Positions 1-46,977 of a DNA stretch of 46,977 nt are shown here, one piece after another. The DNA comes from a virus. The notes beneath the pieces are model-generated. The model was not told the DNA's origin. It ran no database searches and saw only the letters and a program-made list of their open reading frames with translations. The stretch lies in IMG/VR virus record IMGVR_UViG_3300014556_000001. One strand, 5' to 3'. Made by a program: the position numbers and the translations under genes. Position 1 is the stretch's first letter. The number at the start of each line of letters is the position of its first letter.

Positions 1-77
1 GAGTTTACTATCGATATTCTAAAAGACGATATGGAAACAGCCGTAAGAGAGTGGCTGGACTACGGCAGGCTGAGAGG
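1..77. repeat. Terminal direct repeat copy A, identical to 46901-46977. Either a circular-assembly overlap or a short DTR.
   Basis: 77/77 identity read directly. One reading frame runs through the junction uninterrupted. Confidence 0.95.
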
Positions 78-7336: not shown

Positions 7337-9855
7337 AATACTTAGATTTTCTGAAATCTAAAATGGCTATTGCTACCGACAGCGGTTTTGACGTTCTTGA
7401 CAAGAAAATAAACACGGCACTCAAGCCCCACCAGCGTGACATTGTTAAATGGGCTGTAAAAGGTGGCAAGCGTGCTGTGTTTGCCAAGTTCGGACTAGGC
7501 AAGTCAGTTATACAGCTGGAATGGTGTACACAGGTCATAGTTCATGAAGGTGGCAAAGCCCTAATAATATGCCCTCTGGGTGTTAAGCAGGAATTTGTTC
7601 ATGACGCTGTTGAGATACTTGGCTATGACGCACCTACATATGTTAAAACCATGGCAGAGGTGAGGACGTGTTCAGCTGATATCATGATAACGAACTATGA
7701 GAGAGTCCGTGACGGAGATATTGATGTAAAGTATTTCACAGCTACTTCCCTTGACGAAGCGGCCGTATTGAGAAGTTTCGGTAGCAAAACCTATCAAGAA
7801 TTTCTGAAGAAGTTCAACGGCGTTCCATATAAGCTTGTGGCAACCGCAACGCCTGATCCTAACAAGTATAAAGAACTTATCCATTACGCTGGATATCTTG
7901 AAATCATGGACACAGGGCAGGCTCTGACGCGTTTCTTTCAGCGTGACAGCACAAAGGCTAACAACTTGACATTGTACCCTCACAAGGAAGAAGAGTTTTG
8001 GCTATGGGTAAGCTCATGGGCGGTATTTGTTTCAAAGCCGTCAGATGTCAACCCCACATATTCTGACGAGGGATATGATTTGCCTGAGCTAAAAATCAAC
8101 TATCACAGGCTTGCAGTCAGAAAAGACGAGTTGTCAGTCGATAAGTTCGGCCAGAGCAAACTGTTCGATGAAGCTACAGCTAGCTTGCAGGACGAAGCAA
8201 AGATTAAGCGTGAAAGTATATCTCAGCGTGTTGCAGAAGCAGCTAAAATAATAGCTGAAAATCCAGAGGATAGCTTTATTATCTGGCATGACCTTGAAGA
8301 AGAACGCCACGAGATAAAGCGACAGATACCAAATGTTGTTGATATCTATGGTTCTATGGATATCGACTTGCGAGAACGAAGAGCTATCGACTTTGCTAAC
8401 GGCAAAATAAAGCTGTTTGCGACAAAGAAGATACTTTCCGGAAGTGGCTGTAACTTTCAGAAACATTGTCACAGGGCAATATTTATCGGTATCGACTACA
8501 AGTTTAATGACTTCATTCAGGCTGTTCACCGCATATATAGGTTTCTGCAAACTGATGAAGTGACAATCGACATAATCTACATGGACGAAGAAGACGAGAT
8601 AAAAAAGCAGCTGCTTGACAAATGGAAACGTTTCGACTATCAATCTGAGAAAATGGCTGAGATAGTCCGCAAAAACGGCTTGTCTAGCGTTGACAACATC
8701 TCTGACAAAATGAAAAGAAGCATAGGAGTGAAAAGAGTGGTAGTAGAGGGCAATCACTACAAATACATAAACAATGACTGCATATGGGAACTTGAACAAA
8801 TGCCTGACAACAGCGTTGACGAGATAGTAACCTCAATCCCATTTGGTAATCATTACGAGTACACGCCCAGCTACAATGACCTTGGGCACAACGAGGATAA
8901 TGACAGATTCTTTGAGCAAATGGACTATTTGACGCCTAATCTACTGAGAGTGCTGAGACCTGGCAGAGTAGCTTGCATACACGTTAAGGACAGAATTTTA
9001 TTTGGTAATGCAACAGGCGACGGAATGCCGACTGTTGACCCGTTCAGTGACTTGACTGTTATGCACTACATGAAACACGGCTTCCGCTATATGGGCAGAA
9101 TTACAATTACAACTGACGTTGTTCGTGAGAACAATCAGACATATCGCCTTGGTTGGACAGAACAGTGCAAGGACGGCTCAAAAATGGGAGTGGGTTGTCC
9201 AGAGTATGTCCTGCTCTTTAGAAAGCTCCCTACAGATACAAGCAAGGCTTATGCAGACACGCCTGTTACAAAGAGCAAAGCTGATTACAGCAGAGGACGT
9301 TGGCAGATTGACGCTCACGCTTACTGGAGGTCCAGCGGTGATAGGCTCGTGACAAAGGACGAGCTAAAAGAAGTTTCGGTGAACAAGCTTCAAAAGGTAT
9401 ACACGCAGTTTTCAAAGAGCAATGTTTACAACTATGACGAACACGTTGCCTTGGCAGAAAAGCTTGACAAGGAAAACAAATTACCAGCGTCGTTTATGGT
9501 AATCGCCCCTGCAAGCTGGAACGATACAGTCTGGGACGATATCAACCGAATGAGGACGCTCAATGCTGAGCAGCGTAGACGTGATATGCAAATGCACGTT
9601 TGTCCTTTACAGCTCGATATAATCGAACGCCTTATCATTAGGTACTCCAATGAGGGCGATGTTGTGCTTGACCCATTCGGTGGAATAGGTTCAACTCCTA
9701 TGACTGCAATTAAAATGGGGCGATATGGAATAGGCATTGAGCTTAACCCCGACTATTTCCGTGACGGCGTAGGATACTGCAAAGCGGAAGAAGATAAGAT
9801 AGACGTACCAACGTTGTTTGACTTTATGGATAATAAAGAAAAAGCCGCCCCATAG
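7333..9855 (+). CDS. Fusion of an SNF2-type helicase (N-terminal) and an N6-adenine/N4-cytosine DNA methyltransferase (C-terminal)
   Basis: Helicase: LKPHQRD, GLGKS, SLDEAAVLRS, VATATPDPN. MTase: TSIPFGNHYEY (motif IV-like) precedes LDPFGGIGST (motif I), which is the beta-class order. Confidence 0.85.
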   Translation: MKYLDFLKSKMAIATDSGFDVLDKKINTALKPHQRDIVKWAVKGGKRAVFAKFGLGKSVIQLEWCTQVIVHEGGKALIICPLGVKQEFVHDAVEILGYDAPTYVKTMAEVRTCSADIMITNYERVRDGDIDVKYFTATSLDEAAVLRSFGSKTYQEFLKKFNGVPYKLVATATPDPNKYKELIHYAGYLEIMDTGQALTRFFQRDSTKANNLTLYPHKEEEFWLWVSSWAVFVSKPSDVNPTYSDEGYDLPELKINYHRLAVRKDELSVDKFGQSKLFDEATASLQDEAKIKRESISQRVAEAAKIIAENPEDSFIIWHDLEEERHEIKRQIPNVVDIYGSMDIDLRERRAIDFANGKIKLFATKKILSGSGCNFQKHCHRAIFIGIDYKFNDFIQAVHRIYRFLQTDEVTIDIIYMDEEDEIKKQLLDKWKRFDYQSEKMAEIVRKNGLSSVDNISDKMKRSIGVKRVVVEGNHYKYINNDCIWELEQMPDNSVDEIVTSIPFGNHYEYTPSYNDLGHNEDNDRFFEQMDYLTPNLLRVLRPGRVACIHVKDRILFGNATGDGMPTVDPFSDLTVMHYMKHGFRYMGRITITTDVVRENNQTYRLGWTEQCKDGSKMGVGCPEYVLLFRKLPTDTSKAYADTPVTKSKADYSRGRWQIDAHAYWRSSGDRLVTKDELKEVSVNKLQKVYTQFSKSNVYNYDEHVALAEKLDKENKLPASFMVIAPASWNDTVWDDINRMRTLNAEQRRRDMQMHVCPLQLDIIERLIIRYSNEGDVVLDPFGGIGSTPMTAIKMGRYGIGIELNPDYFRDGVGYCKAEEDKIDVPTLFDFMDNKEKAAP

Positions 9856-9861
9856 GGCGGC
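9844..9861 (-). terminator. GC hairpin (GCCGCCC-cata-GGGCGGC), followed on the minus strand by a T-rich run. It overlaps the last codons of the methyltransferase.
   Basis: Stem read directly. The minus-strand reading is GCCGCCCTATGGGGCGGCTTTTCTTTATT. Confidence 0.5.
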
Positions 9862-9867
9862 ATAAGA

Positions 9868-10023
9868 TTATATTCGATAACGTTTCTTGATAAATGTATA
9901 AAGCCCAACGGCAATCGATACTATGAGCAGACCACCAAGGACAGGGACGGTATCAACGAGTTTCACAAAGGCAAATGCAAAAATCTTAATCGTTGACCAC
10001 ATAGACTGCAATAGTTGTAACAT
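9868..10023 (-). CDS. 51-aa small membrane protein, the only minus-strand gene in the early block
   Basis: MLQLLQSMWSTIKIFAFAFVKLVDTVPVLGGLLIVSIAVGLYTFIKKRYRI. RBS GAAAGGAGTG lies upstream of ATG (10023). Hand-translated. Confidence 0.55.
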   Translation of the reverse strand: MLQLLQSMWSTIKIFAFAFVKLVDTVPVLGGLLIVSIAVGLYTFIKKRYRI

Positions 10024-10138
10024 TTTATCACTCCTTTCTTGAAATTTTATACATTATAACACCATAGGATATGATTGTCAATGGACATAACAAACAAAAC
10101 GCAGGACTTTCACACATTGAACACAAAAGGAGGAACAT

Positions 10139-10321
10139 ATGAGTAAAATAAAAATTTTTAAAGAAATTCTAACAGCAGTTGGTATATGGAGTTTGGTCGG
10201 CTTATCATGGCAAATACTTGAGATTTTGATGTATGGTGAGATACAGCCGCGAGGTGTAGACACAATTGTTACCGCTGTGCTGAGTCTATCTATATATATA
10301 AACTTAGAGATGTTGGAGTGA
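10139..10321 (+). CDS. 60-aa small membrane protein
   Basis: ORF track. RBS AAAGGAGGAA upstream. Two hydrophobic segments. Confidence 0.55.
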   Translation: MSKIKIFKEILTAVGIWSLVGLSWQILEILMYGEIQPRGVDTIVTAVLSLSIYINLEMLE

Positions 10322-10325
10322 TAAC

Positions 10326-10721
10326 ATGGGTAACAACAAATTTTGTACCAGTTGCAAGTATTTTGAAAAAGCACCTGACAACTGCGGCAGAAAGAACGGA
10401 AAATACGGGCTATGCGTTCGTCAAATGAAATTCGGCCTAAAACCAATGGTAGTCAACTATCATCATTCTGTATGTGAAGAATTCAAAGACAAGATAGAGG
10501 CTGTAAAATGCAGTGCTGCTACGACGCTTTGTTGGTACTGCAAACACGCAGTGCCAAAGAGCGACAAGCGGACAGGTGAGCAGATAACAGGGTGCAGTTG
10601 GTCGATAGACAGACAGCCTGTGCGTGGTTGGAAGACGCACTGTCATAGGGTTTATAAGGGACAGAAAGGCACGTTGCAGTCATACACTGTGACGGAGTGC
10701 CCTGAGTTTGAGGAGGGGTAA
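10326..10721 (+). CDS. Cys-rich hypothetical protein (putative zinc-binding)
   Basis: FCTSCKYFEKAPDNCG and CWYCKHAVP motifs. ORF track. Confidence 0.65.
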   Translation: MGNNKFCTSCKYFEKAPDNCGRKNGKYGLCVRQMKFGLKPMVVNYHHSVCEEFKDKIEAVKCSAATTLCWYCKHAVPKSDKRTGEQITGCSWSIDRQPVRGWKTHCHRVYKGQKGTLQSYTVTECPEFEEG

Positions 10722-15805: not shown

Positions 15806-16009
15806 ATGTCCAATTACGCCGATTATCTCAGCTGCATTTCAGACCCGCATATCTATGCTGTGATGAAATGTATTTACGTTCAAAAGCTCACGCAGGAACA
15901 AACTGCCGAGCAACTTTGTATCTCACCTTCGACTGTCTATCGCGTTCACAAGGTAGGCTGTCGCACAATCAATGAAATTATCCAAGGAGGTGTTCAGAAT
16001 GGCAAATGA
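15806..16009 (+). CDS. Small sigma-70 region-4-like / HTH protein (candidate late-gene activator)
   Basis: LTQEQTAEQLCISPSTVYRVHKVGCRTINEII. RBS AAGGAGG. It lies immediately upstream of terS. Confidence 0.65.
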   Translation: MSNYADYLSCISDPHIYAVMKCIYVQKLTQEQTAEQLCISPSTVYRVHKVGCRTINEIIQGGVQNGK

Positions 16010-16565
16010 TGTTGTAAAAGGCAGAGGCGGTAAAAATAACTTCGGTACGTCCAACAAGGCAGCTCTTGCGAAAGATAGCGCTTTTGTCGGAAAAATGGTC
16101 AGAGAAGTCTATGTTGCTTACAAACAGCCAAAAGTTAAATCAAACGCTGAACTCGTAGATAGACTCGATAAGTATTTTAAACACTGTGCTGAAAATAATA
16201 TCATTCCTACCGTTGAGGAAATGTGCCTGTTCACGGGTTACTCAAATAAGACTGTTTGGGATTGGGAGAAAGGCAGATCACACCCGTTTGACGATGGAGA
16301 GTTGAACGTTTCGACGTCCGAAATTATAAAAAATGCCAAGAGTTTTATGTGTGCTTTTGATGCAAAATTGGTGCTGGCAGGCAAGCTAAATCCTGTGACT
16401 TACATCTTCCGTGCAAAGAACTACTACGGTATGAGTGACAGGCAGGAAGTCGAGATCACAAAGACCAATCAGCTTGGCGACAATCTGACCGATGATGAGC
16501 TTGCAAAGAAGCTCATGAAAGAAACTGAGGTCATAGACGTTGAAGCTTCTGAAGCTGAGGAATAG
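15999..16565 (+). CDS. terS: Terminase small subunit
   Basis: IPTVEEMCLFTGYSNKTVWDWEKG HTH as in Terminase_2-type TerS. ATG 15999 follows AAGGAGG. Acidic C-terminus. Confidence 0.7.
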   Translation: MANDVVKGRGGKNNFGTSNKAALAKDSAFVGKMVREVYVAYKQPKVKSNAELVDRLDKYFKHCAENNIIPTVEEMCLFTGYSNKTVWDWEKGRSHPFDDGELNVSTSEIIKNAKSFMCAFDAKLVLAGKLNPVTYIFRAKNYYGMSDRQEVEITKTNQLGDNLTDDELAKKLMKETEVIDVEASEAEE

Positions 16566-16568
16566 CAA

Positions 16569-16640
16569 GCGACTATCACTCACACGCTGAGCGACTATCA
16601 AACGACTATCAAACGACTATGAAACGCACACGGAAACGTA
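16569..16640. repeat. Four CGACTATCA-type repeats merging into AAACG phased about every 11 bp
   Basis: GCGACTATCA at 16569 and 16591, CGACTATCA at 16603, CGACTATGA at 16614. AAACG at about 16600, 16611, 16622 and 16634. Confidence 0.6.
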
Positions 16641-16707
16641 AAAGTTTTCACACGCAATAGTCGAAATAAATATGAATAGAAAATCGGTAAGAAAACAGCT
16701 GAAAATA

Positions 16708-16748
16708 CGCCGCCTGAGGGGTTGACCTTTGGGCGGCGGTGATTTTAT
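16708..16748 (+). terminator. Candidate intrinsic terminator after terS
   Basis: 7-bp all-GC stem CGCCGCC (16708-14) / GGCGGCG (16732-38), followed by GTGATTTTATCG. The 17-nt loop makes it atypical. Confidence 0.4.
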
Positions 16749-17053
16749 CGAAAAATCATGCACACACCACAAGGCGGCCAGCAAGCCCCGTATGACGTTT
16801 TAATGCTTATGACGGAAGTTTATAGGTAACACATTGAAACGTCATAGGGTGCACGCTAGGGGCATTGTAGAACGTTATAACAATAACAATGCTGCAAAGA
16901 TATCACCGCTAGGCCGTCCAGTGCGTCGCAAGAGCCGTCGGACAGCATTGAGCAGTAAAGATATAGGGGTATGATATCGGACCGCATATGCGGGCGAATG
17001 GGCGGCAAGGGGTGGGATAAAAAAGCAACGCCCACCCCACAATCAGCGGAGCA

Positions 17054-17125
17054 GGCAAAAAAGCCCGCCAAAGCCGGAGCCTTGGCGGGTAAAAATATAG
17101 GGGGCTGATACCGTCAACCCCCTAG
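17054..17125 (-). terminator. Two tandem intrinsic terminators for the minus-strand three-gene operon
   Basis: CCCGCCAA/TTGGCGGG (17064-71/17082-89) followed on the minus strand by CTTTTTTG. GGGGG/CCCCC (17100-04/17118-22) followed by TATATTTTTA. Confidence 0.55.
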
Positions 17126-17192
17126 AGCGGCTATTTGTAACGCTTTGCCGTTCTGATAACCACCAGAACAGGGAACAGAAACAGTGCAATTA

Positions 17193-17429
17193 TTAGCATG
17201 CGGTCACCGCCTCCGCGTCGGAAAAACGCGCGCCAAAAAAGAAATACGTGCGTTTTTTAGAAATGCTGACGCGTTCAAATACTGCATCTGTGCAATTTAT
17301 CTTTGACCGCTCGCAGGCGGTCAAGAGTTCGTTTCCTATCAATATCCCGTCAAAAATATGACGTCCGCAGCTGTCAGTTTTGTAAATTTTTTTTTGGTCA
17401 TACTGCGGTTTTACACGGAAATACGTCAT
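17193..17429 (-). CDS. Hypothetical 78-aa protein, third gene of the cassette operon
   Basis: ORF track. RBS-like GGGGGGTGA 5 nt upstream. The ORF contains a hairpin, so its coding status is uncertain. Confidence 0.5.
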   Translation of the reverse strand: MTYFRVKPQYDQKKIYKTDSCGRHIFDGILIGNELLTACERSKINCTDAVFERVSISKKRTYFFFGARFSDAEAVTAC

Positions 17430-17441
17430 GTAATCACCCCC

Positions 17442-17666
17442 CTATTCTGCCAGTCCGTCAAGATATGCGGCGCAGGCTTTCGGCGTTTCTCCACCGCCGA
17501 ACAATCGGCGGACGCCACCGTCTGCATTTATGCGGCGGTCAACGGCATAGCCGTATATATCACGGTATATCTGTATAGCACCGATATCACCAGCGCCAAG
17601 GTTATGGGCGGCGTTGATTGTTGCCGCCCTGCGTTTCAGTTCGTTAAATGTGATACGTGTTCTCAT
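17442..17666 (-). CDS. Hypothetical 74-aa protein
   Basis: MRTRITFNELKRRAATINAAHNLG... GGAGG RBS upstream of ATG 17666. Visibly GC-rich codons compared with the rest of the phage. Confidence 0.6.
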   Translation of the reverse strand: MRTRITFNELKRRAATINAAHNLGAGDIGAIQIYRDIYGYAVDRRINADGGVRRLFGGGETPKACAAYLDGLAE

Positions 17667-17682
17667 AGTGTTGTACCTCCTG

Positions 17683-17868
17683 TTATTCATTAATCGTGTA
17701 ACTGTATGGTTTGCCGTCCTCGGCTCTGCGTGCGGCGCATATTGGGATGCCGTGCATATTCGTTATTAACACGCTGTCTCCGCCGAGGTTCTGCAGGTGT
17801 TTCGCTGCGTTTCTGCTGGTGCTGATGATCGTGTTTCTGTAACCGTAATGTACTAGATAGTTTTTCAT
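17683..17868 (-). CDS. Hypothetical 61-aa protein, first gene of the cassette operon
   Basis: ORF track. RBS GGCAGGAGGTAAAAC upstream of the ATG. Confidence 0.6.
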   Translation of the reverse strand: MKNYLVHYGYRNTIISTSRNAAKHLQNLGGDSVLITNMHGIPICAARRAEDGKPYSYTINE

Positions 17869-17921
17869 GTTTTACCTCCTGCCCTGTGGGCTGTCTTGCC
17901 GTGGTTTTTGTTTCTGTTATT

Positions 17922-17950
17922 ATAATATCACGATTTCGTGATATTGTCAA
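17922..17950 (-). promoter_or_regulatory. Sigma-70-type promoter (TTGACA-17-TATTAT) whose spacer is a 10-bp-arm palindrome operator
   Basis: Minus strand reads TTGACAATATCACGAAATCGTGATATTAT. Palindrome AATATCACGA/TCGTGATATT at 17924-17945. An extra half-site lies at 17969-17978. Confidence 0.6.
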
Positions 17951-18171
17951 TAGGTTTTTATCATGTTTTCGTGATATTTTTTATCTTTGTTGAATGTGTA
18001 CAAAAAATCAAAAGATATTGAACACATTTGTACAAACAAGATCATGATAAACGGCCGCTATTATTATATATACCTTTATAAACGGGAAAAATGACCCACC
18101 CCCAGGGGTCTTACAGGACGGACCCACCCCCTTCACTCAACCCCCCGACTAGAAAAAATATAAAAAAGGGG

Positions 18172-18200
18172 TTGACAATATCATGAATAGGTGATATAAT
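18172..18200 (+). promoter_or_regulatory. Consensus promoter (TTGACA-17-TATAAT), a near-copy of the 17922-17950 promoter in the opposite orientation
   Basis: TTGACAATATCATGAATAGGTGATATAAT. The spacer carries ATATCA..TGATAT half-sites. It lies 27 nt upstream of HTH gene ATG 18227. Confidence 0.7.
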
Positions 18201-18226
18201 GAAGCCAATGAAAGGAGCGACATTAA

Positions 18227-18487
18227 ATGATAATCACAACAGCTATTAAAGACATCATGAAAAAACGTGGAGTAACTCAAAATGAGCTTAAAGAAAAGCT
18301 AGGATACAGAACACAATCAGCTATAGCTGAACGTCTGAAGCAAAAAAGCATTGGCGTTGATAAAGCATTTGAAATGTTAGACGCAATGGGCTATGAAATA
18401 ATCATACAGCCAAAAAGCACGCGTGGCAAAAGAGCAACGGGATCATATGTGATAACAAAAGAGGACGAGCAGGAAGAAAAACAATGA
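18227..18487 (+). CDS. XRE-like HTH regulator with an acidic tail
   Basis: KKRGVTQNELKEKLGYRTQSAIAERLKQ helix-turn-helix. RBS AAAGGAG. Confidence 0.75.
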   Translation: MIITTAIKDIMKKRGVTQNELKEKLGYRTQSAIAERLKQKSIGVDKAFEMLDAMGYEIIIQPKSTRGKRATGSYVITKEDEQEEKQ

Positions 18488-18545
18488 ATGGAGAAACAGC
18501 AGGTCAGGCAGGGAGAACAGTAGGAAACATAAAGGGTGATGTGCA

Positions 18546-19115
18546 ATGGTATACGGATATGCAAGAGTCAGCTCCGTAGGACAGATAGACGGAAACAGCT
18601 TTGAGGACCAAGAGAAGCTTATAAAAAGCAACTATCCAAATGCAGAAATACATCTGGAACAGGGCTCAGGTGCAAAAGAGCGTAAAGTGTTGAATGAAAT
18701 AATGAATAAAGCAGTTTCAGGCGACACGATAGTAGTAACAAAGCTTGACCGCTTCTGCAGGTCAACAGCGTTAGGTTTGGAGTATATCGAGCGCATGAGA
18801 GCGAAAGGTGTCAAGATACACATTCTCAACATGGGTCTGATAGAAAACACACCGATAGGCAAGCTGATTGTCACAAACCTGTTGGCATTTGCCGAGTTTG
18901 AGAGAGCGATGATACTTGAACGAACGCAATCAGGCAAAGCTATTGCACGTCAAAAAGAAGGCTACCAGGAAGGCAGACCGAAAACTGTAAACATACCTGA
19001 TGAGGTAAAGCAAAAGGTCGATAGTGGTAAAATGACAGTAGCCGCCGCCTGCCGTGAACTTGGCATAAGCCGTTCAACGTGGTATAATGAAATGAGAGCA
19101 GCAAGAACAGAATGA
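18546..19115 (+). CDS. Small serine recombinase (resolvase/invertase family) with a C-terminal HTH
   Basis: [13 protein letters not shown] (catalytic Ser), [28 protein letters not shown], and C-terminal [14 protein letters not shown]. Confidence 0.9.
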
Positions 19116-19148
19116 TATAACAGCAGAACGATAATAAAAAAATAGAGC

Positions 19149-19176
19149 GTGCCAAGTGCCGAGTGCCAAGTGCCAC
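19149..19176. repeat. Four tandem heptamers: GTGCCAA GTGCCGA GTGCCAA GTGCCAC
   Basis: Read directly. The last unit pairs with TGTGGCACT at 19205-19213, enclosing the terL RBS and start codon. Confidence 0.8.
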
Positions 19177-19201
19177 ATAGCTGACGATGAAAGGAGGCTA
19201 G

Positions 19202-20920
19202 TTGTGTGGCACTATTTTTATGCCATGCAGAAAAAGTATGATAGATCTGACAGTAGTAGGCAACAGAGCATTAAGCAAAGAAGATATGTTTAAGCTTGCA
19301 CAAAAGCAGGCAAATGGTGAGTTGAAAACAGAACAGCTCCTGCTTGAAACGTTGAAAGTACAGGACGAAAAGAAGAAGCCGATGATAGAGGCGGCAAAGC
19401 ATAGCTATGAGAGCGCAATGAGAAAAACAAGCGAACTTGCAAAAGCAGGCAAAGCAAAACTCGCAAAAGAGTGGTATGACCTGGCTCACAAATTCGTACT
19501 GTGGGCAGGCGACAGCAATTTTGACGCATATATGCTGGCTTCCGAATGGAACAGAGAGCCAAGCGCTAAGTTCTGGGCACCAAGGAGAGCTGTTCTTGAG
19601 GGCAAGCACAAGTTGGCAACGCAGATACAAGAGTTCATAGACGATGAGGACGCCCTGTTTCTGAGCTTGAGCACGCCCCCAGGTGCAGGCAAGAGTACGC
19701 TTATAAAGTTTCTGCTGTCATACATTGCAGGACTGTTTCCGCAGTCTGCGAACATATACACATCATACTCAGACGGAATGTCGAAAATGATGTATGACAG
19801 TGTGGTATCAATGTTAACGGACACAAGTGAATATGGGCACAACGATATATTCGACAATGGTATGCCTACATTGAGTGCAGAGTACAACACTATATCGTAC
19901 CGAAAAAAAGGCGACTTCCCTACTATCGGAGTTATCTCCCTGGGCGGTTCGGTAACAGGTCGAACGAGAGCAAATAAGTTCATGATAACAGATGACCTCG
20001 TGAAGAATGCGGAAGTGGCAAGAAACCCGCAAAGGCTTGAAACACTGTGGCAGGATTACAGAGATACGCTGACAACCCGACAGATAGGCGATAATGTAAA
20101 GCAAATAATGCTCGGTACGATATGGAGTTTGCATGACCCTATCAGCCGAATGCGAACTGATCATGAGGGAGATCCGCGATATAGATTTATTGCGATACCC
20201 GTATGTGACGATAACGGCCATAGTAATTTCAATTACAACTGTGCGGACAGATACACAGATAAAAAAATACGTGACATAAAAGCAGACATAGATAATGTCA
20301 CATTTAGTTGCCTGTATATGCAGCAACCTATGGAACGTGAAGGTCTGCTCTTCCATAAGGACGAAATGAACTGGTATAACGGAACACTGCCTGACGGCTC
20401 TGCAAGAAGAATAGCTGTGTGTGATGTGGCGTGGGGCGGTGACTATCTGGCAATGCCGATAGGATATCTGTATGAGGACGGAAGTTTGTTTTTGCAAGAC
20501 GTGGTTTTCAGCAAGGGTGATAAAAAAATCACACAGCCAATGGTTGTGGCAAAGAGCATACAACATCAGATACATCAAGAGAGGTTTGAAGGTAATAACG
20601 GCGGAGATGAATATGCGAATGAGATAGATAAACAGCTGAGAGCACAGAACGTCCACATAAATATCAGCAGTAAACGTGCGTCGACAGCACAGAGCAAGCT
20701 TAGCCGAATATTGCAATATGCACCTGACATAAAACAGGTGTATTATCGCAACGATAACGGCAGAGGTGAGATGTACGATAAATTTCTGGAAAATCTGTTT
20801 GCATTTAATCAGAGCGGTAAAAACGCACATGATGACGCCCCCGACAGCATGGCACAGCTGTGTGCGTTTGCAACAAATGGCGTAGGCGCAAGTGTAGAAA
20901 TTATCAAGAGGATTATATAG
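19202..20920 (+). CDS. terL: Terminase large subunit
   Basis: Walker A LSTPPGAGKST, Walker B KFMITDDLV, and nuclease-domain C-terminus NAHDDAPDSM. Start is TTG 19202, or ATG 19220 or 19238. Confidence 0.9.
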   Translation: MCGTIFMPCRKSMIDLTVVGNRALSKEDMFKLAQKQANGELKTEQLLLETLKVQDEKKKPMIEAAKHSYESAMRKTSELAKAGKAKLAKEWYDLAHKFVLWAGDSNFDAYMLASEWNREPSAKFWAPRRAVLEGKHKLATQIQEFIDDEDALFLSLSTPPGAGKSTLIKFLLSYIAGLFPQSANIYTSYSDGMSKMMYDSVVSMLTDTSEYGHNDIFDNGMPTLSAEYNTISYRKKGDFPTIGVISLGGSVTGRTRANKFMITDDLVKNAEVARNPQRLETLWQDYRDTLTTRQIGDNVKQIMLGTIWSLHDPISRMRTDHEGDPRYRFIAIPVCDDNGHSNFNYNCADRYTDKKIRDIKADIDNVTFSCLYMQQPMEREGLLFHKDEMNWYNGTLPDGSARRIAVCDVAWGGDYLAMPIGYLYEDGSLFLQDVVFSKGDKKITQPMVVAKSIQHQIHQERFEGNNGGDEYANEIDKQLRAQNVHINISSKRASTAQSKLSRILQYAPDIKQVYYRNDNGRGEMYDKFLENLFAFNQSGKNAHDDAPDSMAQLCAFATNGVGASVEIIKRII

Positions 20921-21019
20921 GGGGACTTAAATAAGGAAAATTTATAGGCAGACGCTGAAATGAAAGCGAATTGTGCAACATGAACAAAAATGTTGAATAA
21001 TATTTTACATAGTGTGAAG

Positions 21020-21048
21020 TGGAAAAAGTTGAAAAGTAGTATTATAAT
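21020..21048 (+). promoter_or_regulatory. Possible promoter (TGGAAA-17-TATAAT) for the KTR-like gene
   Basis: TATAAT at 21043-48. The -35 element is weak. Confidence 0.3.
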
Positions 21049-21071
21049 AAGCTTGTCAGGAGGGATAGGTA

Positions 21072-21260
21072 ATGGATAATAGGCGCATACATAATAGGCG
21101 CATAGATGTATATTGTCCGAGCTGTGCGGCGGCAGGCATAAAGCGAAAGCTTATGGAAGTCGATAATGACGCAAAGGGCGTTATCTATCCATACTGCAAG
21201 GGCTGTAAGAAAAACGTTGCAGTTAAATTGCCCATAAGTGCTGAAAAGCACCTCCGTTAA
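21072..21260 (+). CDS. 62-aa cysteine-rich KTR-like zinc-ribbon mini-protein
   Basis: VYCPSCAAAGIKRKLMEV...YPYCKGCKKNVAVKL: two CxxC pairs spaced as in the Cys-rich KTR family. RBS AGGAGGG. Confidence 0.6.
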   Translation: MDNRRIHNRRIDVYCPSCAAAGIKRKLMEVDNDAKGVIYPYCKGCKKNVAVKLPISAEKHLR

Positions 21261-21261
21261 G

Positions 21262-21829
21262 TTAATTTACGGGGCGAAAGCCCCGTATGTTCCGCAAAGT
21301 CAGAGTGGGTGCAATTCCCACACGGAACACCAAGCCTGTTATAAGTCTGTCGGCCAAGGTCGATAACGAATAACTTAAAAACCACACATTGATGGCTGTG
21401 TGTCGCTGGGTAGAATAGCCTAGGGTACTTTTTTACAATGAATTTATTTTCCTTAAAGCTAAATTCATTTCGTCAGCTGGAACGAAATCCAGCCAACCAA
21501 CGGGTTAATGCTTAATCCCGTATCAAAAGGCATATCATTCCTTTACTCTGCCAACACTGATGAGTGTTCGGGCAGGATCGCAAAGCTGTATTGCAACAGG
21601 TACAGCTTTGAATTTGCAGGTTGAGAGCGTGCCAGCTCGAAGCCTGCTCCATTTGGCAGCTGCTATCCTCTCCAGGTATCACCCACAAAGCAGTTGCCAT
21701 GCAAGCTTGTCCAAGCTTGATCTCCTTTCTGTTTTTACAGCGGCGGTAACACGCCGCACATGTCGGCTGACAGTGTGAGCCTGAAAGTCGGCACCATAAG
21801 AATATTAAGTGCCAAGTGTTTAATTACCA
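21262..21829 (+). ncRNA. Candidate large structured non-coding RNA (about 570 nt). Class unknown; ROOL/GOLLD-like context.
   Basis: No credible ORF. At least 10 perfect helices, including a GAAA tetraloop hairpin at 21268-21287 and a 10-bp helix at 21581-21610. Ends at a strong terminator. Confidence 0.45.
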
Positions 21830-21877
21830 AGTGCCTATTAGTTATCTAAAAAAGATAGCTGATAGGCACTTTTTTTG
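21830..21877 (+). terminator. Strong intrinsic terminator
   Basis: 17-bp stem AGTGCCTATTAGTTATC / GATAGCTGATAGGCACT (two G-U pairs), loop TAAAAAA, then seven T. Confidence 0.75.
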
Positions 21878-21996
21878 TTGCACGGAGGTGAAACAATACG
21901 GAATTACACGGCAGACGAAAAATCCTTCTGAATGAAAGAGATATTACAGAAGAAAACATTATTGAAATAGTTCGGAGAGCGGTCGCAACTCACGAA

Positions 21997-39657: not shown

Positions 39658-39662
39658 TCGTA

Positions 39663-39690
39663 TGGTGCGGGTGACAGGACTTGAACCTGC
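39663..39690 (-). other. tRNA 3' fragment (T-arm, acceptor strand, CCA), the likely attP core
   Basis: Minus strand reads GCAGG-TTCAAGT-CCTGT-CACCCGC-A-CCA. It lies 30 nt from the integrase stop. No matching 5' half is present. Confidence 0.65.
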
Positions 39691-39720: not shown

Positions 39721-40749
39721 CTATTTTGCATTTTTCGTGTCATGTTTTGTGTCATATACGCTTTGAAAATAGTCGTCGATAACCTTATCGACACGTTGGC
39801 GATCATCATCGAAAGTCTGCTGATAAACTGACCTTAGTGTGCTGGTATTACTCCAACCACCCCGCTCCATTGCGTATATATCGGGAATATTCAGCTTCGC
39901 CATAACGCTGGCGCTTATGTGTCTCAGGTCATGAAAAGTAATGCAATACCCTGCTGACCTTGTAATTTTTACGAGCTTGTCATATATTTGCTTAGGGTTG
40001 TACTGCACAACATAATCATCAAGGTTGAGCTCCAATGCGTCAATCAGCTCAACAAGTGGCTTGCCAAGTCTTACTTGTCGATTACTCTTATATGTTTTCG
40101 CTTGCTTCTTTACTGTCAGCTTATTGCCAACCATAACACGCACCTGTGACAGTGTTAAGATATCTCCAGCTATATCCTTGCGGCGTATTCCCTGTATCTC
40201 TGACATTCGCAATCCGCCCCACACTGCAAGCAACACTGGTATTTCAATATCTGTGCCACGAAACAGTTCAATAATTGTTTCGGCGTCAGGCAAGCTTTTA
40301 AACGTTCTAGTTTTTTGTGGCAAGCGTATTTTGCCCAATTTTATATCAACATCATGATAGGTCATTATCGCTGTGAAGAAGCCATATATATTTCTTACAG
40401 TTTTCGCAGATCTTACGACAGCAATGCTGTTCACCCAATCTTGCACAAGTTGTGGCGTAATATCATTTAACCGCATATTTGCAAATCTGTCAAAATGATT
40501 TTTAAGTTCCGACTTATATTCATGTATCGTGGTAGGCGATAGAACAGGTGTTTTAATCTCAATGTATTCCTCTGCAGCTTGCTGAAACGTTTTTTCGTCC
40601 TCGCTTTGTTGAGTGCTGTTCAGCCACTCTGCTGCCATTAACTCGGCTTCTTTCTTGGTTTTGGCCGTGAACGATTTGTACTTCCCTGTTGCTTTGTCAT
40701 ATGCCCTAACACGATAGTTTCCGCTAGGCAGTTTTTTTGCTGTTGCCAT
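39721..40749 (-). CDS. int: Tyrosine integrase
   Basis: N-terminal KLPSGNYRVRAYD SAM-like start, GLRMSEI (Arg), ITFHDLRHISAS (HxxR), GGWSNTSTLRSVYQQ (Tyr). Confidence 0.9.
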   Translation of the reverse strand: MATAKKLPSGNYRVRAYDKATGKYKSFTAKTKKEAELMAAEWLNSTQQSEDEKTFQQAAEEYIEIKTPVLSPTTIHEYKSELKNHFDRFANMRLNDITPQLVQDWVNSIAVVRSAKTVRNIYGFFTAIMTYHDVDIKLGKIRLPQKTRTFKSLPDAETIIELFRGTDIEIPVLLAVWGGLRMSEIQGIRRKDIAGDILTLSQVRVMVGNKLTVKKQAKTYKSNRQVRLGKPLVELIDALELNLDDYVVQYNPKQIYDKLVKITRSAGYCITFHDLRHISASVMAKLNIPDIYAMERGGWSNTSTLRSVYQQTFDDDRQRVDKVIDDYFQSVYDTKHDTKNAK

Positions 40750-44180: not shown

Positions 44181-44234
44181 ATTTCATCAAATGATGAAAT
44201 AAGCCTTGACATTCCTCAATTGATGAAATATAAT
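44181..44234 (+). promoter_or_regulatory. Genetic switch: operator palindrome plus a rightward consensus promoter with a second operator in its spacer
   Basis: ATTTCATCA-aa-TGATGAAAT at 44181-44200. TTGACA at 44206-11, 17-nt spacer TTCCTCAATTGATGAAA, TATAAT at 44229-34. Confidence 0.6.
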
Positions 44235-44414
44235 AAGTTTGTAAAAGAAATTATACAAAAAAGACAACACAAAACCAAGCCATATTGAAAGTCCCAATTT
44301 TCAAAATAGCTCGTTTATATTATATTTGGTCGCACTTATATAATAGCTCAATTTGACTTGTTTGTCAAGGTTCTTTTACAAAATTTATGTGTTTTGGAGG
44401 TGAACATTTTAAGA

Positions 44415-46441: not shown

Positions 46442-46977
46442 ATGAAAAAAATCAAAGTAAAGTTGACGTTCACCGAAGAGATTCTGGGAACGGCAAACGC
46501 AACAACCACAATTCACGATGAGTACATCGCATCGAAAGCACCCGATGCAAAGAGCCGTGAGGAAGAGATAGCCGCGCTTGGCGTGGCTGAGGTAGTTGAA
46601 AAGTCTATGACGGTATTCCCGACACTGGAAGACGGCACACCATTTCTGTGGGACTATCAAATCAAAGGATTTTTCAAGGACGCTTGCGGTGTTCTGAAAA
46701 AGGTATCAGGCACGGCAAGCTCAAAAATCAAGGCGTACAAGAAAGAGATTGACGGGCTTGTCTTCGTCGAGGAGCGCAAGATACCATACGAATTCAAGGG
46801 CGGTATGGGCGAGTGTCAGAGGCCGTTGAGAGCAAGCACGCCACAGGGCGAACGTGTTGCACTGGCACATTCTGAGACAGTGCCTGCAGGAGCGACAGTC
46901 GAGTTTACTATCGATATTCTAAAAGACGATATGGAAACAGCCGTAAGAGAGTGGCTGGACTACGGCAGGCTGAGAGG
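46442..46977 (+). CDS. 5' part of the junction-spanning early protein (199 aa in total) with RAMP (Cas7/Csm3)-like sequence landmarks
   Basis: RBS ACGGAGG upstream of ATG 46442. MKKIKVKLTFTEEILG..., TPFLWDYQIKGFFKDA. Continues into 1-141. Confidence 0.8.
   Translation, partial: MKKIKVKLTFTEEILGTANATTTIHDEYIASKAPDAKSREEEIAALGVAEVVEKSMTVFPTLEDGTPFLWDYQIKGFFKDACGVLKKVSGTASSKIKAYKKEIDGLVFVEERKIPYEFKGGMGECQRPLRASTPQGERVALAHSETVPAGATVEFTIDILKDDMETAVREWLDYGRLR
46901..46977. repeat. Terminal direct repeat copy B (identical to 1-77)
   Basis: 77/77 identity read directly. Confidence 0.95.

Follow-up and report, generated by a model that had tools for sequence, protein, structure and literature searches.

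Hotspots for accessory genes are known in bacteriophages, including the morons of lambdoid phages, the hotspots of P2 and P4 (PMC9122126), and the sites covered by a phage hotspot survey (bioRxiv 10.1101/2024.10.15.618418). In acr operons with Aca autorepressors, a helix-turn-helix (HTH) protein shuts down a very strong promoter after an initial burst of expression. Bacteriophage P1, which is a plasmid prophage, keeps cre, the gene for a tyrosine recombinase, within a few kb of its packaging start, and the presence of loxP in the terminal redundancy could allow RecA-independent cyclization as well as multimer resolution. In the par region of RK2/RP4, the parCBA resolvase operon is divergent from the parDE toxin-antitoxin pair, and the resolution site lies in the control region. 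These systems are compared here with a locus in IMG/VR virus record IMGVR_UViG_3300014556_000001, a 46,977-nt stretch of viral DNA referred to below as the window. In it, the genes for the small and large terminase subunits, terS and terL, are separated by an interval that carries small minus-strand genes (the cargo), an HTH regulator, and a resolvase-type serine recombinase.

The interval is probably an ancestral, repressor-gated bay for accessory genes that lies where two transcription units meet and that typifies a large clade of temperate siphoviruses infecting gut Clostridia. Each of its components belongs to a known kind; to our knowledge, their fixed combination and position are new, and full-text searches of the literature found no description of a serine recombinase fixed between terS and terL. 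A terL-based scan of IMG/VR recovered 31 close relatives with terL sequences 97-100% identical to that of the window, together with two more at 56%. The comparison also took in approximately 40 more distant phage lineages that keep the gene order (recombinase 28-68% identical); 49 further IMG/VR viral contigs had recombinases 51-68% identical. The recombinase gene (94-100% identical) and the HTH gene lie directly upstream of terL in all 31 close relatives, and the non-coding stretch that follows terS, along with the control region, is likewise found at the same position in every one of them. Backbone nucleotide alignments extend continuously from the primase gene across terS and all of the non-coding stretch as far as 17213, restart at 17660 or 17862, and then continue through the control region, the HTH gene, the recombinase gene, and terL. 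With the gap confined to 17213-17660/17862, only the small minus-strand genes are therefore variable; the non-coding stretch, HTH gene, and recombinase gene diverge at the backbone's pace.

The same arrangement extends well beyond the close relatives. The recurring order is terS, a variable interval of 1.2-4.4 kb, a small HTH gene, the serine recombinase gene, terL, and an SPP1-type portal gene, and it is kept in lineages L034, L037, L038, L042, and L044, where the recombinase is 61-66% identical, and in L032, where the recombinase is 28% and terL 56% identical. A gene of the HTH family lies upstream of the recombinase gene in 38 of the 49 further viral contigs, and terL follows the recombinase in all 30 of those 38 that have enough downstream sequence. 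In Clostridium phage Maintenon (terL 41% identical), the terminase genes are separated by a 2.65-kb gap holding small genes and two tRNAs without a recombinase, from which it follows that the split between terS and terL predates its association with the recombinase. Alignment with relatives in search of empty terS-terL junctions and of exact cassette boundaries turned up no empty junction among the 31 close relatives and approximately 40 distant lineages (some 70 loci), and no flanking or terminal repeats were found at 16566 or 19190. The initial annotation of this DNA had taken the interval for a recently acquired, autonomous mobile module. Neither part of that proposal survives the comparison: the non-coding stretch, control region, regulator, and recombinase are in place in all 31 close relatives, the gene order is clade-wide, and only the cargo turns over, with no empty junction, flanking repeat, or inversion detected among the relatives. 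An error easily made in annotation, namely that the presence of a recombinase alone is a sign of a mobile element, is thereby corrected.

The features of the interval and its flanking genes, in window coordinates, are as follows.

15972..16565, plus strand: terS, small terminase subunit (PF16677 GP3_package, 6e-09; phrog_606, 2e-13)
16570..16625: array of 11-nt direct repeats, CGACTATCAA (CGACTATCAAA/G), immediately downstream of the terS stop codon; 4 matches where 0.6 are expected
16708-16738, both strands: bidirectional terminator, a GC-rich hairpin approximately 99% conserved among relatives
16769..16868, minus strand: I2, an imperfect hairpin of approximately 100 nt; an inverted repeat with compensatory changes at two apical pairs
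17029-17124, minus strand: three tandem intrinsic terminators at the end of the cargo operon, from a hairpin scan
17429-17193, minus strand: orf78, variable cargo gene, full length in 2 of 31 relatives (L018 and L029)
17666-17442, minus strand: orf74, variable cargo gene, with weak matches to phrog_15017 and phrog_15513, both of unassigned function
17868-17683, minus strand: orf61, first cargo gene, present in approximately 22 of 31 relatives and lineage-restricted; ratio of nonsynonymous to synonymous substitution rates (dN/dS) 0.11
17950..17922, minus strand: P(minus), leftward promoter, TTGACA-17-TATTAT, 11/12 consensus matches with an extended TG
17926-17943 and 17959-17976: O1 and O2, 18-bp palindromes 33 bp apart
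18172..18200, plus strand: P(plus), rightward promoter, 12/12 consensus match
18179-18196: O3, an 18-bp palindrome inside P(plus), between its -35 and -10 hexamers
18227-18487, plus strand: small Xre-type HTH regulator, allele A of three (HTH_3, 9e-05)
18546-19115, plus strand: serine recombinase, 189 amino acids (aa) (PF00239, 6e-30, residues 2-139; phrog_125, 5e-43)
19060..19212, plus strand: terL leader, with a promoter-like site, repeats, and a hairpin
19202-20920, plus strand: terL, large terminase subunit (phrog_38, 4e-57; dN/dS 0.028)

All five elements that the initial annotation had placed between terS and terL were found, the terminase genes being 2.6 kb apart, and several of their dimensions were revised. 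The non-coding stretch is hairpin-dense as described, and it extends over approximately 630 nt without a convincing open reading frame (ORF; 16566-17192) instead of 450 nt. The three-gene minus-strand operon retains its own promoter, while its two reported terminators give way to one bidirectional and three tandem leftward ones; its three ORFs have good Shine-Dalgarno sites, and the start given for an 82-aa ORF was too early, orf74 starting at 17666. The 220 bp reported for the control region correspond to the O2-to-O3 spacing, the region itself measuring 358 bp from start codon to start codon. The HTH regulator (86 aa) and the resolvase/invertase-type serine recombinase stand as annotated, the case for self-regulation is strengthened by the covariation set out below, and the description of an accessory module with variable cargo of unassigned function is upheld, the small minus-strand genes being the part that turns over among relatives.

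The control region provides the clearest view of how the interval may be regulated. O1 sits between the hexamers of P(minus), and O2 is located just upstream of the leftward -35. Three alleles of the HTH gene exist among the relatives, differing in the N-terminal 50 or so residues, which form the DNA-binding part, and identical in the C-terminal tail. All three operators switch with the HTH allele while the promoter hexamers remain fixed, and this covariation is perfect across 28 distinct control regions. With allele A, O1 and O2 read TATCAYG-N4-CGTGATA and O3 is a degenerate variant, TATCATGAATAGGTGATA; with allele B, O1 and O2 read TATCACC/T-TTTAGGCGATA and O3 reads TATCACAAATAGGTGATA; and with allele C, O1 and O2 read (T/A)ATCAGA-N4-TCTGATA and O3 is a diverged copy, ACAGATATATCTGATA. 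The palindromes are taken to be operators of the HTH protein and not recombinase sites because the recombinase is nearly invariant across the HTH alleles; binding of the recombinase to the three palindromes was rejected for this reason. As such, the HTH protein is predicted to be an autorepressor acting at O1-O3. A comparable layout recurs in more distant lineages. For example, L032 differs in palindrome sequence but not in geometry, two copies being separated by 32 bp and the third lying approximately 215 bp off, and L034 and L037 possess their own clustered, lineage-specific palindromes. The HTH family itself, with its conserved C-terminal GYE-I-I-P motif, occurs upstream of the recombinase throughout the clade, distant lineages included. 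In addition, the part of the control region between O2 and O3 (17995-18036 and 18093-18131) is highly conserved across all HTH alleles; it holds two TGTACA-centred palindromes 32 bp apart and two GACCCACCCCC direct repeats, and a terminator-like hairpin is present on the minus strand at 18110-18093.

Variation in the interval is confined to the minus-strand cargo (approximately 17213-17868) and to an insertion point at 17089-17100. As in a moron or accessory hotspot, the genes that vary have a promoter and terminator of their own and are flanked by conserved genes. The cargo slot of the close relatives ranges from 83 to 1040 bp and accommodates at least seven alternative small proteins. The first cargo gene encodes either orf61 or an acidic protein of 84 aa, and the second position is occupied by orf74, by a protein of 83-107 aa, by a protein of 127 aa, or by no recognizable ORF. 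One relative (L008) has a version of orf78 that is 78% identical, and another (L010) shows an irregular deletion that cuts into orf61. In L016 and L018, a 406-bp insertion at 17089-17100, between two terminators, carries a 108-aa gene with its own TTGACA-17-TATAAT promoter. In L002, the same gene is found from the 17089-17100 point on, directly downstream of the 84-aa gene. Its placement suggests an independent moron inserted between terminators. Each of the cassette junctions (17089-17100, 17213, 17660, and 17862) maps to a start codon, a ribosome-binding site, or a terminator stem; they share no common core, and cargo types, HTH alleles, and flanks have been reshuffled among the close relatives.

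The proteins encoded by the cargo of the window gave few clues. Word-based and full HMMER searches with all three returned only lineage-restricted homologues, and no PADLOC match and no match to a toxin or antitoxin Pfam family was found for any of them. Likewise, orf78 has no match in Pfam, PHROG, PADLOC, or NCBIfam, and the alternative cargo proteins of the close relatives matched nothing in Pfam, PHROG, or PADLOC. An AlphaFold2 model of orf74 (pLDDT 91.7) predicts a small alpha-beta fold that would be phage-specific: no structural match was found in the PDB, and in BFVD the model matches only uncharacterized proteins of Mycobacterium, Gordonia, and Vibrio phages, with TM-scores of 0.8-0.86. 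The cargo of two sister lineages is more readily classified. In L037 it includes an ArdA anti-restriction protein (PF07275; phrog_2059, 3e-16), and in L038 an FtsK/HerA-type ATPase that matches the C-terminus of SspH (3e-57).

The serine recombinase looks catalytically intact, judging from residues R7, S9, D68, R69, R72, E119, and R120, which are invariant across 15 homologues. Its C-terminal HTH scores just below the cut-off (HTH_7, 9e-05; 23.0 bits relative to 23.8 bits), and alignment with Tn3 resolvase reaches residue 184. Among solved structures, the Tn3 and gamma-delta resolvases (8e-18) are closer to it than Gin (1e-12), and there is no NCBIfam equivalog. The dN/dS of the gene relative to the 31 close relatives is 0.058, compared with 0.028 for terL and 0.027 for the portal gene, which suggests strong purifying selection of the kind seen in a core gene. 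No three-subsite res is recognizable upstream of the recombinase gene. Cousins of the enzyme, approximately 57% identical, occur at the edge of elements adjoining tuf (EF-Tu) in Lachnospiraceae genomes. In these elements (L048 and L052, approximately 8840-10570; also L047 and L058), the recombinase gene comes first, ahead of a DnaJ-like gene and small phage-like genes, an arrangement suggesting that enzymes of this family can be used in the manner of an integrase.

The DNA on either side of the bay also has a recurring structure. terS is the final gene of the rightward transcription unit upstream, and the non-coding stretch that follows it folds better than shuffled controls (z = -5.5 for the plus strand and -8.5 for the minus strand). 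The copy number of the 11-nt repeats behind the terS stop codon varies from approximately three to nine among the relatives, and related arrays (CGACTAT, CGACTTT, and CAACTTT; up to 12 copies) directly follow terS in eight other lineages (L032, L037, L177, L180, L190, L196, L205, and L207). These iterons are a candidate binding site for the terS product, or pac site. The hairpin at 16708-16738 is predicted to insulate the convergent terS and cargo transcripts from one another. Many G-U pairs in the stretch are viable on the minus strand only, which fits a function in the leftward transcript. A known RNA family was sought in Rfam, with nothing at gathering thresholds and only chance-level matches at E >= 0.2, and no tRNA or tmRNA was found in the stretch. 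A single large structured RNA was also considered and rejected: the covariation that RNAalifold detected across 21 relatives was weak (-3.8 kcal/mol; 7 of 167 pairs), so a series of separate hairpins and terminators fits better than one fold. The non-coding stretch is accordingly read as a zone of convergent terminators between terS and the cargo operon that also serves as a landing pad for cassettes. The repeats behind terS and those ahead of terL have no 8- or 9-mers in common in the window, and those few that the two regions share in other lineages lie scattered, with no relation to the repeats.

At the other end of the interval, the leader of terL begins within the recombinase gene, where a promoter-like site (11/12) lies in the 3' end at 19060-19088. 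Downstream of the gene are variable repeats of 15-16 nt, then an invariant array of four copies of a 7-nt GTGCCRA repeat (the last copy being GTGCCAC), and finally a hairpin of 15 bp (19169-19212), within which lie the Shine-Dalgarno site and the TTG start codon of terL. At the corresponding position, several sister lineages (L205, L207, L213, and L217) have a perfect consensus sigma-70 promoter with a terminator hairpin behind it. The arrangement resembles a late leader of the lambda PR'/tR' type, which would need antitermination. On this basis, terL is predicted to open its own structural-gene transcription unit, and such a unit would explain the accumulation of accessory DNA ahead of it. 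Two further observations concern this region. The codons for the conserved Trp-Tyr-Asn motif of the recombinase HTH (TGG TAT AAT; 19074-19088; also in L180, L183, L188, L194, and L196) form an extended -10, and may represent an exapted terL promoter or a coincidence. Additionally, the terL frame is approximately 890 aa long instead of approximately 550 in some sister lineages (L198, L202, L203, L206, L209, L211, L212, L218, and L219), and these 2.7-kb ORFs suggest an inserted domain, an intein, or a gene fusion.

The left part of the interval (16700-17900) had been described as visibly richer in G+C than the rest of the phage. This is weakly the case (0.498 vs 0.435 for the genome; z = 2.0, within the top 2.7% of 1.2-kb windows), and it is not peculiar to the interval: the primase gene is comparable, at 0.485-0.50, and the tail region at 34.7-35.7 kb is higher, at up to 0.53. 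The control region and HTH gene, in the right half, are GC-poor (0.37), and the cassette as a whole does not stand out in tetranucleotide distance (z = 1.1). The GC-rich runs pointed out previously (GGCGGCGG, CCCACCCC, and GCCCGCC) are terminator stems, and the modest GC excess stems largely from such stems.

Taken together, these features allow a mechanism to be proposed. terS closes its transcription unit and is followed by the iteron array and a convergent terminator stack. On in silico evidence, the Xre-type HTH protein gates a divergent promoter pair through two operators on the leftward promoter and one inside the rightward promoter. P(minus) drives one to three small, rapidly exchanged genes in slots bounded by gene starts and terminator stems, and P(plus) drives the HTH gene itself and the conserved resolvase-type recombinase, with terL placed behind its own leader hairpin. 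Upon entry into a naive cell, a short burst of cargo and recombinase would be expected: the switch also produces the repressor, which would have to be made before both promoters are silenced. The cargo would consist of conflict genes, serving either anti-defence or defence and exclusion, and the iterons may be the pac site recognized by the terS product. It is tempting to suggest that the recombinase acts on phage DNA near pac in a manner akin to Cre/loxP, either cyclizing terminally redundant genomes or resolving multimers, since action near pac would explain its lasting linkage to the packaging genes. This Cre/loxP-like role in cyclization or multimer processing is the preferred guess as to its function, and is based on the constant linkage of the recombinase gene to pac, terS, and terL and on its being expressed, together with the cargo, by a switch expected to fire upon entry into a cell free of repressor. 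In its specific form, with a recombinase site just downstream of pac in the terminal redundancy of headful-packaged DNA and an enzyme that is made in the same burst as anti-defence cargo and that cyclizes the incoming linear genome or resolves or builds multimers, as a serine-recombinase analogue of Cre/loxP common to the clade, the proposal is distinctly speculative and more probably wrong than right. A role in the capture of cargo is less likely than packaging-linked genome processing.

Several observations weigh against these proposals. The phage encodes RecT and an exonuclease, which could cyclize redundant ends without the recombinase. No recombination site for the enzyme was identified, all of the strong palindromes near its gene following the HTH allele, and none of at least 31 genomes showed an inversion, deletion, or circle junction that could be ascribed to it. 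The cousins beside tuf indicate, moreover, that this family of recombinases is not bound to one role. Finally, the cargo of the window itself has neither informative homologues nor informative fold matches, so that the anti-defence label draws on two sister lineages and on what is generally known of phage hotspots.

Of the other explanations for the interval, the most credible, though still improbable, is that the leftward operon and HTH gene form a prophage-expressed module of defence, superinfection-exclusion, or toxin-antitoxin morons, to which the recombinase is an unrelated neighbour. The anatomy is certainly moron-like, with sigma-70-type promoters and terminators of its own opposing late transcription; an SspH-like ATPase occupies this position in a sister lineage, and defence genes are frequent in prophage hotspots (PMC9122126). 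However, another sister lineage carries the anti-restriction protein ArdA in the same place, the window cargo lacks matches to defence systems in PADLOC and to toxins or antitoxins in Pfam, proteins of 61-78 aa with acidic alternatives are more inhibitor-like than effector-like, and the pairing of HTH and recombinase is too conserved for a chance neighbourhood. It is less likely again that the recombinase is a DNA invertase of the Gin/Hin/Cin type, which would flip a phase-variable segment of phage DNA or, in lysogens, of the host chromosome. "DNA invertase" is the label of its top PHROG family (5e-43), and 49-nt inverted repeats (17922-17970 and 18152-18200) flank a 181-nt segment directly upstream of the operon. 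These repeats, however, are a duplicated promoter-operator unit, and a flip of the inner segment would alter neither promoter. As far as the phage DNA is concerned, no minus-strand alignment was found in 33 relatives, the junction predicted for an inversion is absent from IMG/VR, and the genome, tail-fibre region included, has no other long inverted repeat that could make up a suitable pair; the sequence is also nearer to the Tn3 and gamma-delta resolvases than to Gin, as noted above.

Two further explanations would have the recombinase move DNA into the locus, and both are very improbable. A recent, autonomous mobile cassette, inserted between terS and terL by its own serine recombinase, might account for the moderately GC-rich left part and for a unit with its own promoters and terminators, and the tuf-adjacent cousins indicate that relatives of the enzyme can mobilize DNA when at the edges of integrated elements. 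Such a cassette is contradicted by the absence of an empty site in all relatives and lineages surveyed, by divergence of the non-coding stretch, HTH gene, and recombinase gene that matches the backbone, by core-like selection on the recombinase, and by the 2.65-kb gap of Maintenon, which exists without a recombinase. Of the hallmarks of a mobile cassette or transposon, terminal repeats and empty sites were not found, and the composition does not set the interval apart, its GC excess being matched by the primase gene and exceeded in the tail region. An integron-like capture system, in which the recombinase promotes the exchange of cargo cassettes, scarcely fares better. Hypervariable cargo does lie right beside a conserved recombinase in every lineage, and the reshuffling of cargo types, HTH alleles, and flanks among close relatives would be in keeping with capture. 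The four cassette junctions nevertheless lack a shared, attC-like core, the deletion in L010 is irregular, and RecT and the exonuclease suffice for mosaic exchange at short homologies.

The bay is part of a phage whose remaining features are conventional. An exact direct repeat of 77 nt is present at both ends of the window (1-77 = 46901-46977), which is therefore a complete circular assembly of approximately 46.9 kb. Its gene content is that of a typical temperate siphovirus whose host would be Gram-positive and low in GC. It comprises RecT and the exonuclease, SSB, helicases, methyltransferases, and a primase; terS, terL, an SPP1-type portal, and a 1408-aa ORF of tape-measure size; holin and endolysin; and a minus-strand tyrosine integrase with CI-like and Cro-like regulators. 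A small sigma-like or RinA-like protein is also encoded. Close homologues of the recombinase were found in Clostridia genomes and gut metagenomes. GenBank phages include no near-identical record for the window, and the nearest of them to carry the recombinase are those of the phiCD38-2 group, in which its gene is located elsewhere. The elements concerned with integration are the following.

39663-39689: attP core, a tRNA 3'-end fragment, beside the tyrosine integrase gene
39721-40749, minus strand: tyrosine integrase (phrog_1, 9e-50)

Of 18 relatives retrieved with the integrase, 17 lose their similarity to the window at 39660-39663, approximately 60 nt beyond the integrase stop codon, and several of these contigs (among L125, L126, L128, and L141) continue into 1-4 kb of unrelated DNA that is probably that of the host. 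This is a standard attP for a tyrosine integrase, by means of which the prophage integrates into a tRNA gene. A role for the serine recombinase as the integrase was ruled out, since the attP/tRNA junction adjoins the tyrosine integrase gene, whereas the serine recombinase gene lies over 20 kb away. Elsewhere in the window, a pair of 42-nt imperfect inverted repeats in the CI/Cro intergenic region (44226-44394) probably represents the immunity operators of the lysogeny switch. A second variable interval is located between terL and the portal gene (20921-21996), where alignments to relatives stop at approximately 21333-21434 and restart at 21470-21802; this gap ranges from approximately 1.0 to 1.8 kb among relatives, and the window has a zinc-ribbon-like ORF of 62 aa there (21072-21260).

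If the interpretation of the interval as a gated accessory bay is true, a large group of temperate phages that infect Clostridia of the human gut would have in common a fixed and easily located landing pad between terS and terL, where short conflict genes are exchanged under the control of a simple repressor switch specific to each allele. Mining this site would then be a practical route to defence and anti-defence proteins not yet known. The three pairs of HTH protein and operator, being naturally orthogonal, could serve as regulatory parts. In addition, the tight association between a resolvase-type recombinase and the terminase genes across the clade could point to a step in genome entry or packaging that a recombinase assists.

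Each of the known systems shares some of these traits with the bay. Like the par region of RK2/RP4, the bay would consist of divergent, autoregulated operons that meet at one short control region, with a resolvase-family gene on one side and small accessory proteins on the other; the resolution site in the control region and the toxin-antitoxin partner are features of par. The recombinase has the domain layout and catalytic residues of the Tn3 and gamma-delta resolvases, whereas the bay comes without a transposase or terminal inverted repeats, and the palindromes upstream of the gene belong to the HTH protein. As with Cre in P1, the gene is located near a candidate packaging start, with pac, the direction of packaging, the terminal redundancy, and the recombinase site all being presumed; the enzyme, however, is a serine recombinase. 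The resemblance to acr operons with Aca autorepressors lies in tiny, hypervariable proteins together with a conserved HTH protein that has palindromes in the promoters, as predicted in silico. In the bay, by contrast, the HTH gene is divergent instead of downstream in the cargo operon, its product would also control a recombinase, and no known family of this kind was matched by the cargo (in Pfam, PHROG, PADLOC, and NCBIfam) or by the HTH protein. Finally, small genes with their own promoter and terminator, swapped between near-identical phages at a fixed site, are as characteristic of the bay as of morons and other hotspots, and its counterparts in sister lineages include anti-restriction and defence-like genes. 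What distinguishes the bay from these hotspots is its location inside the packaging module, its dedicated, allele-switching repressor, and its permanent serine recombinase partner.

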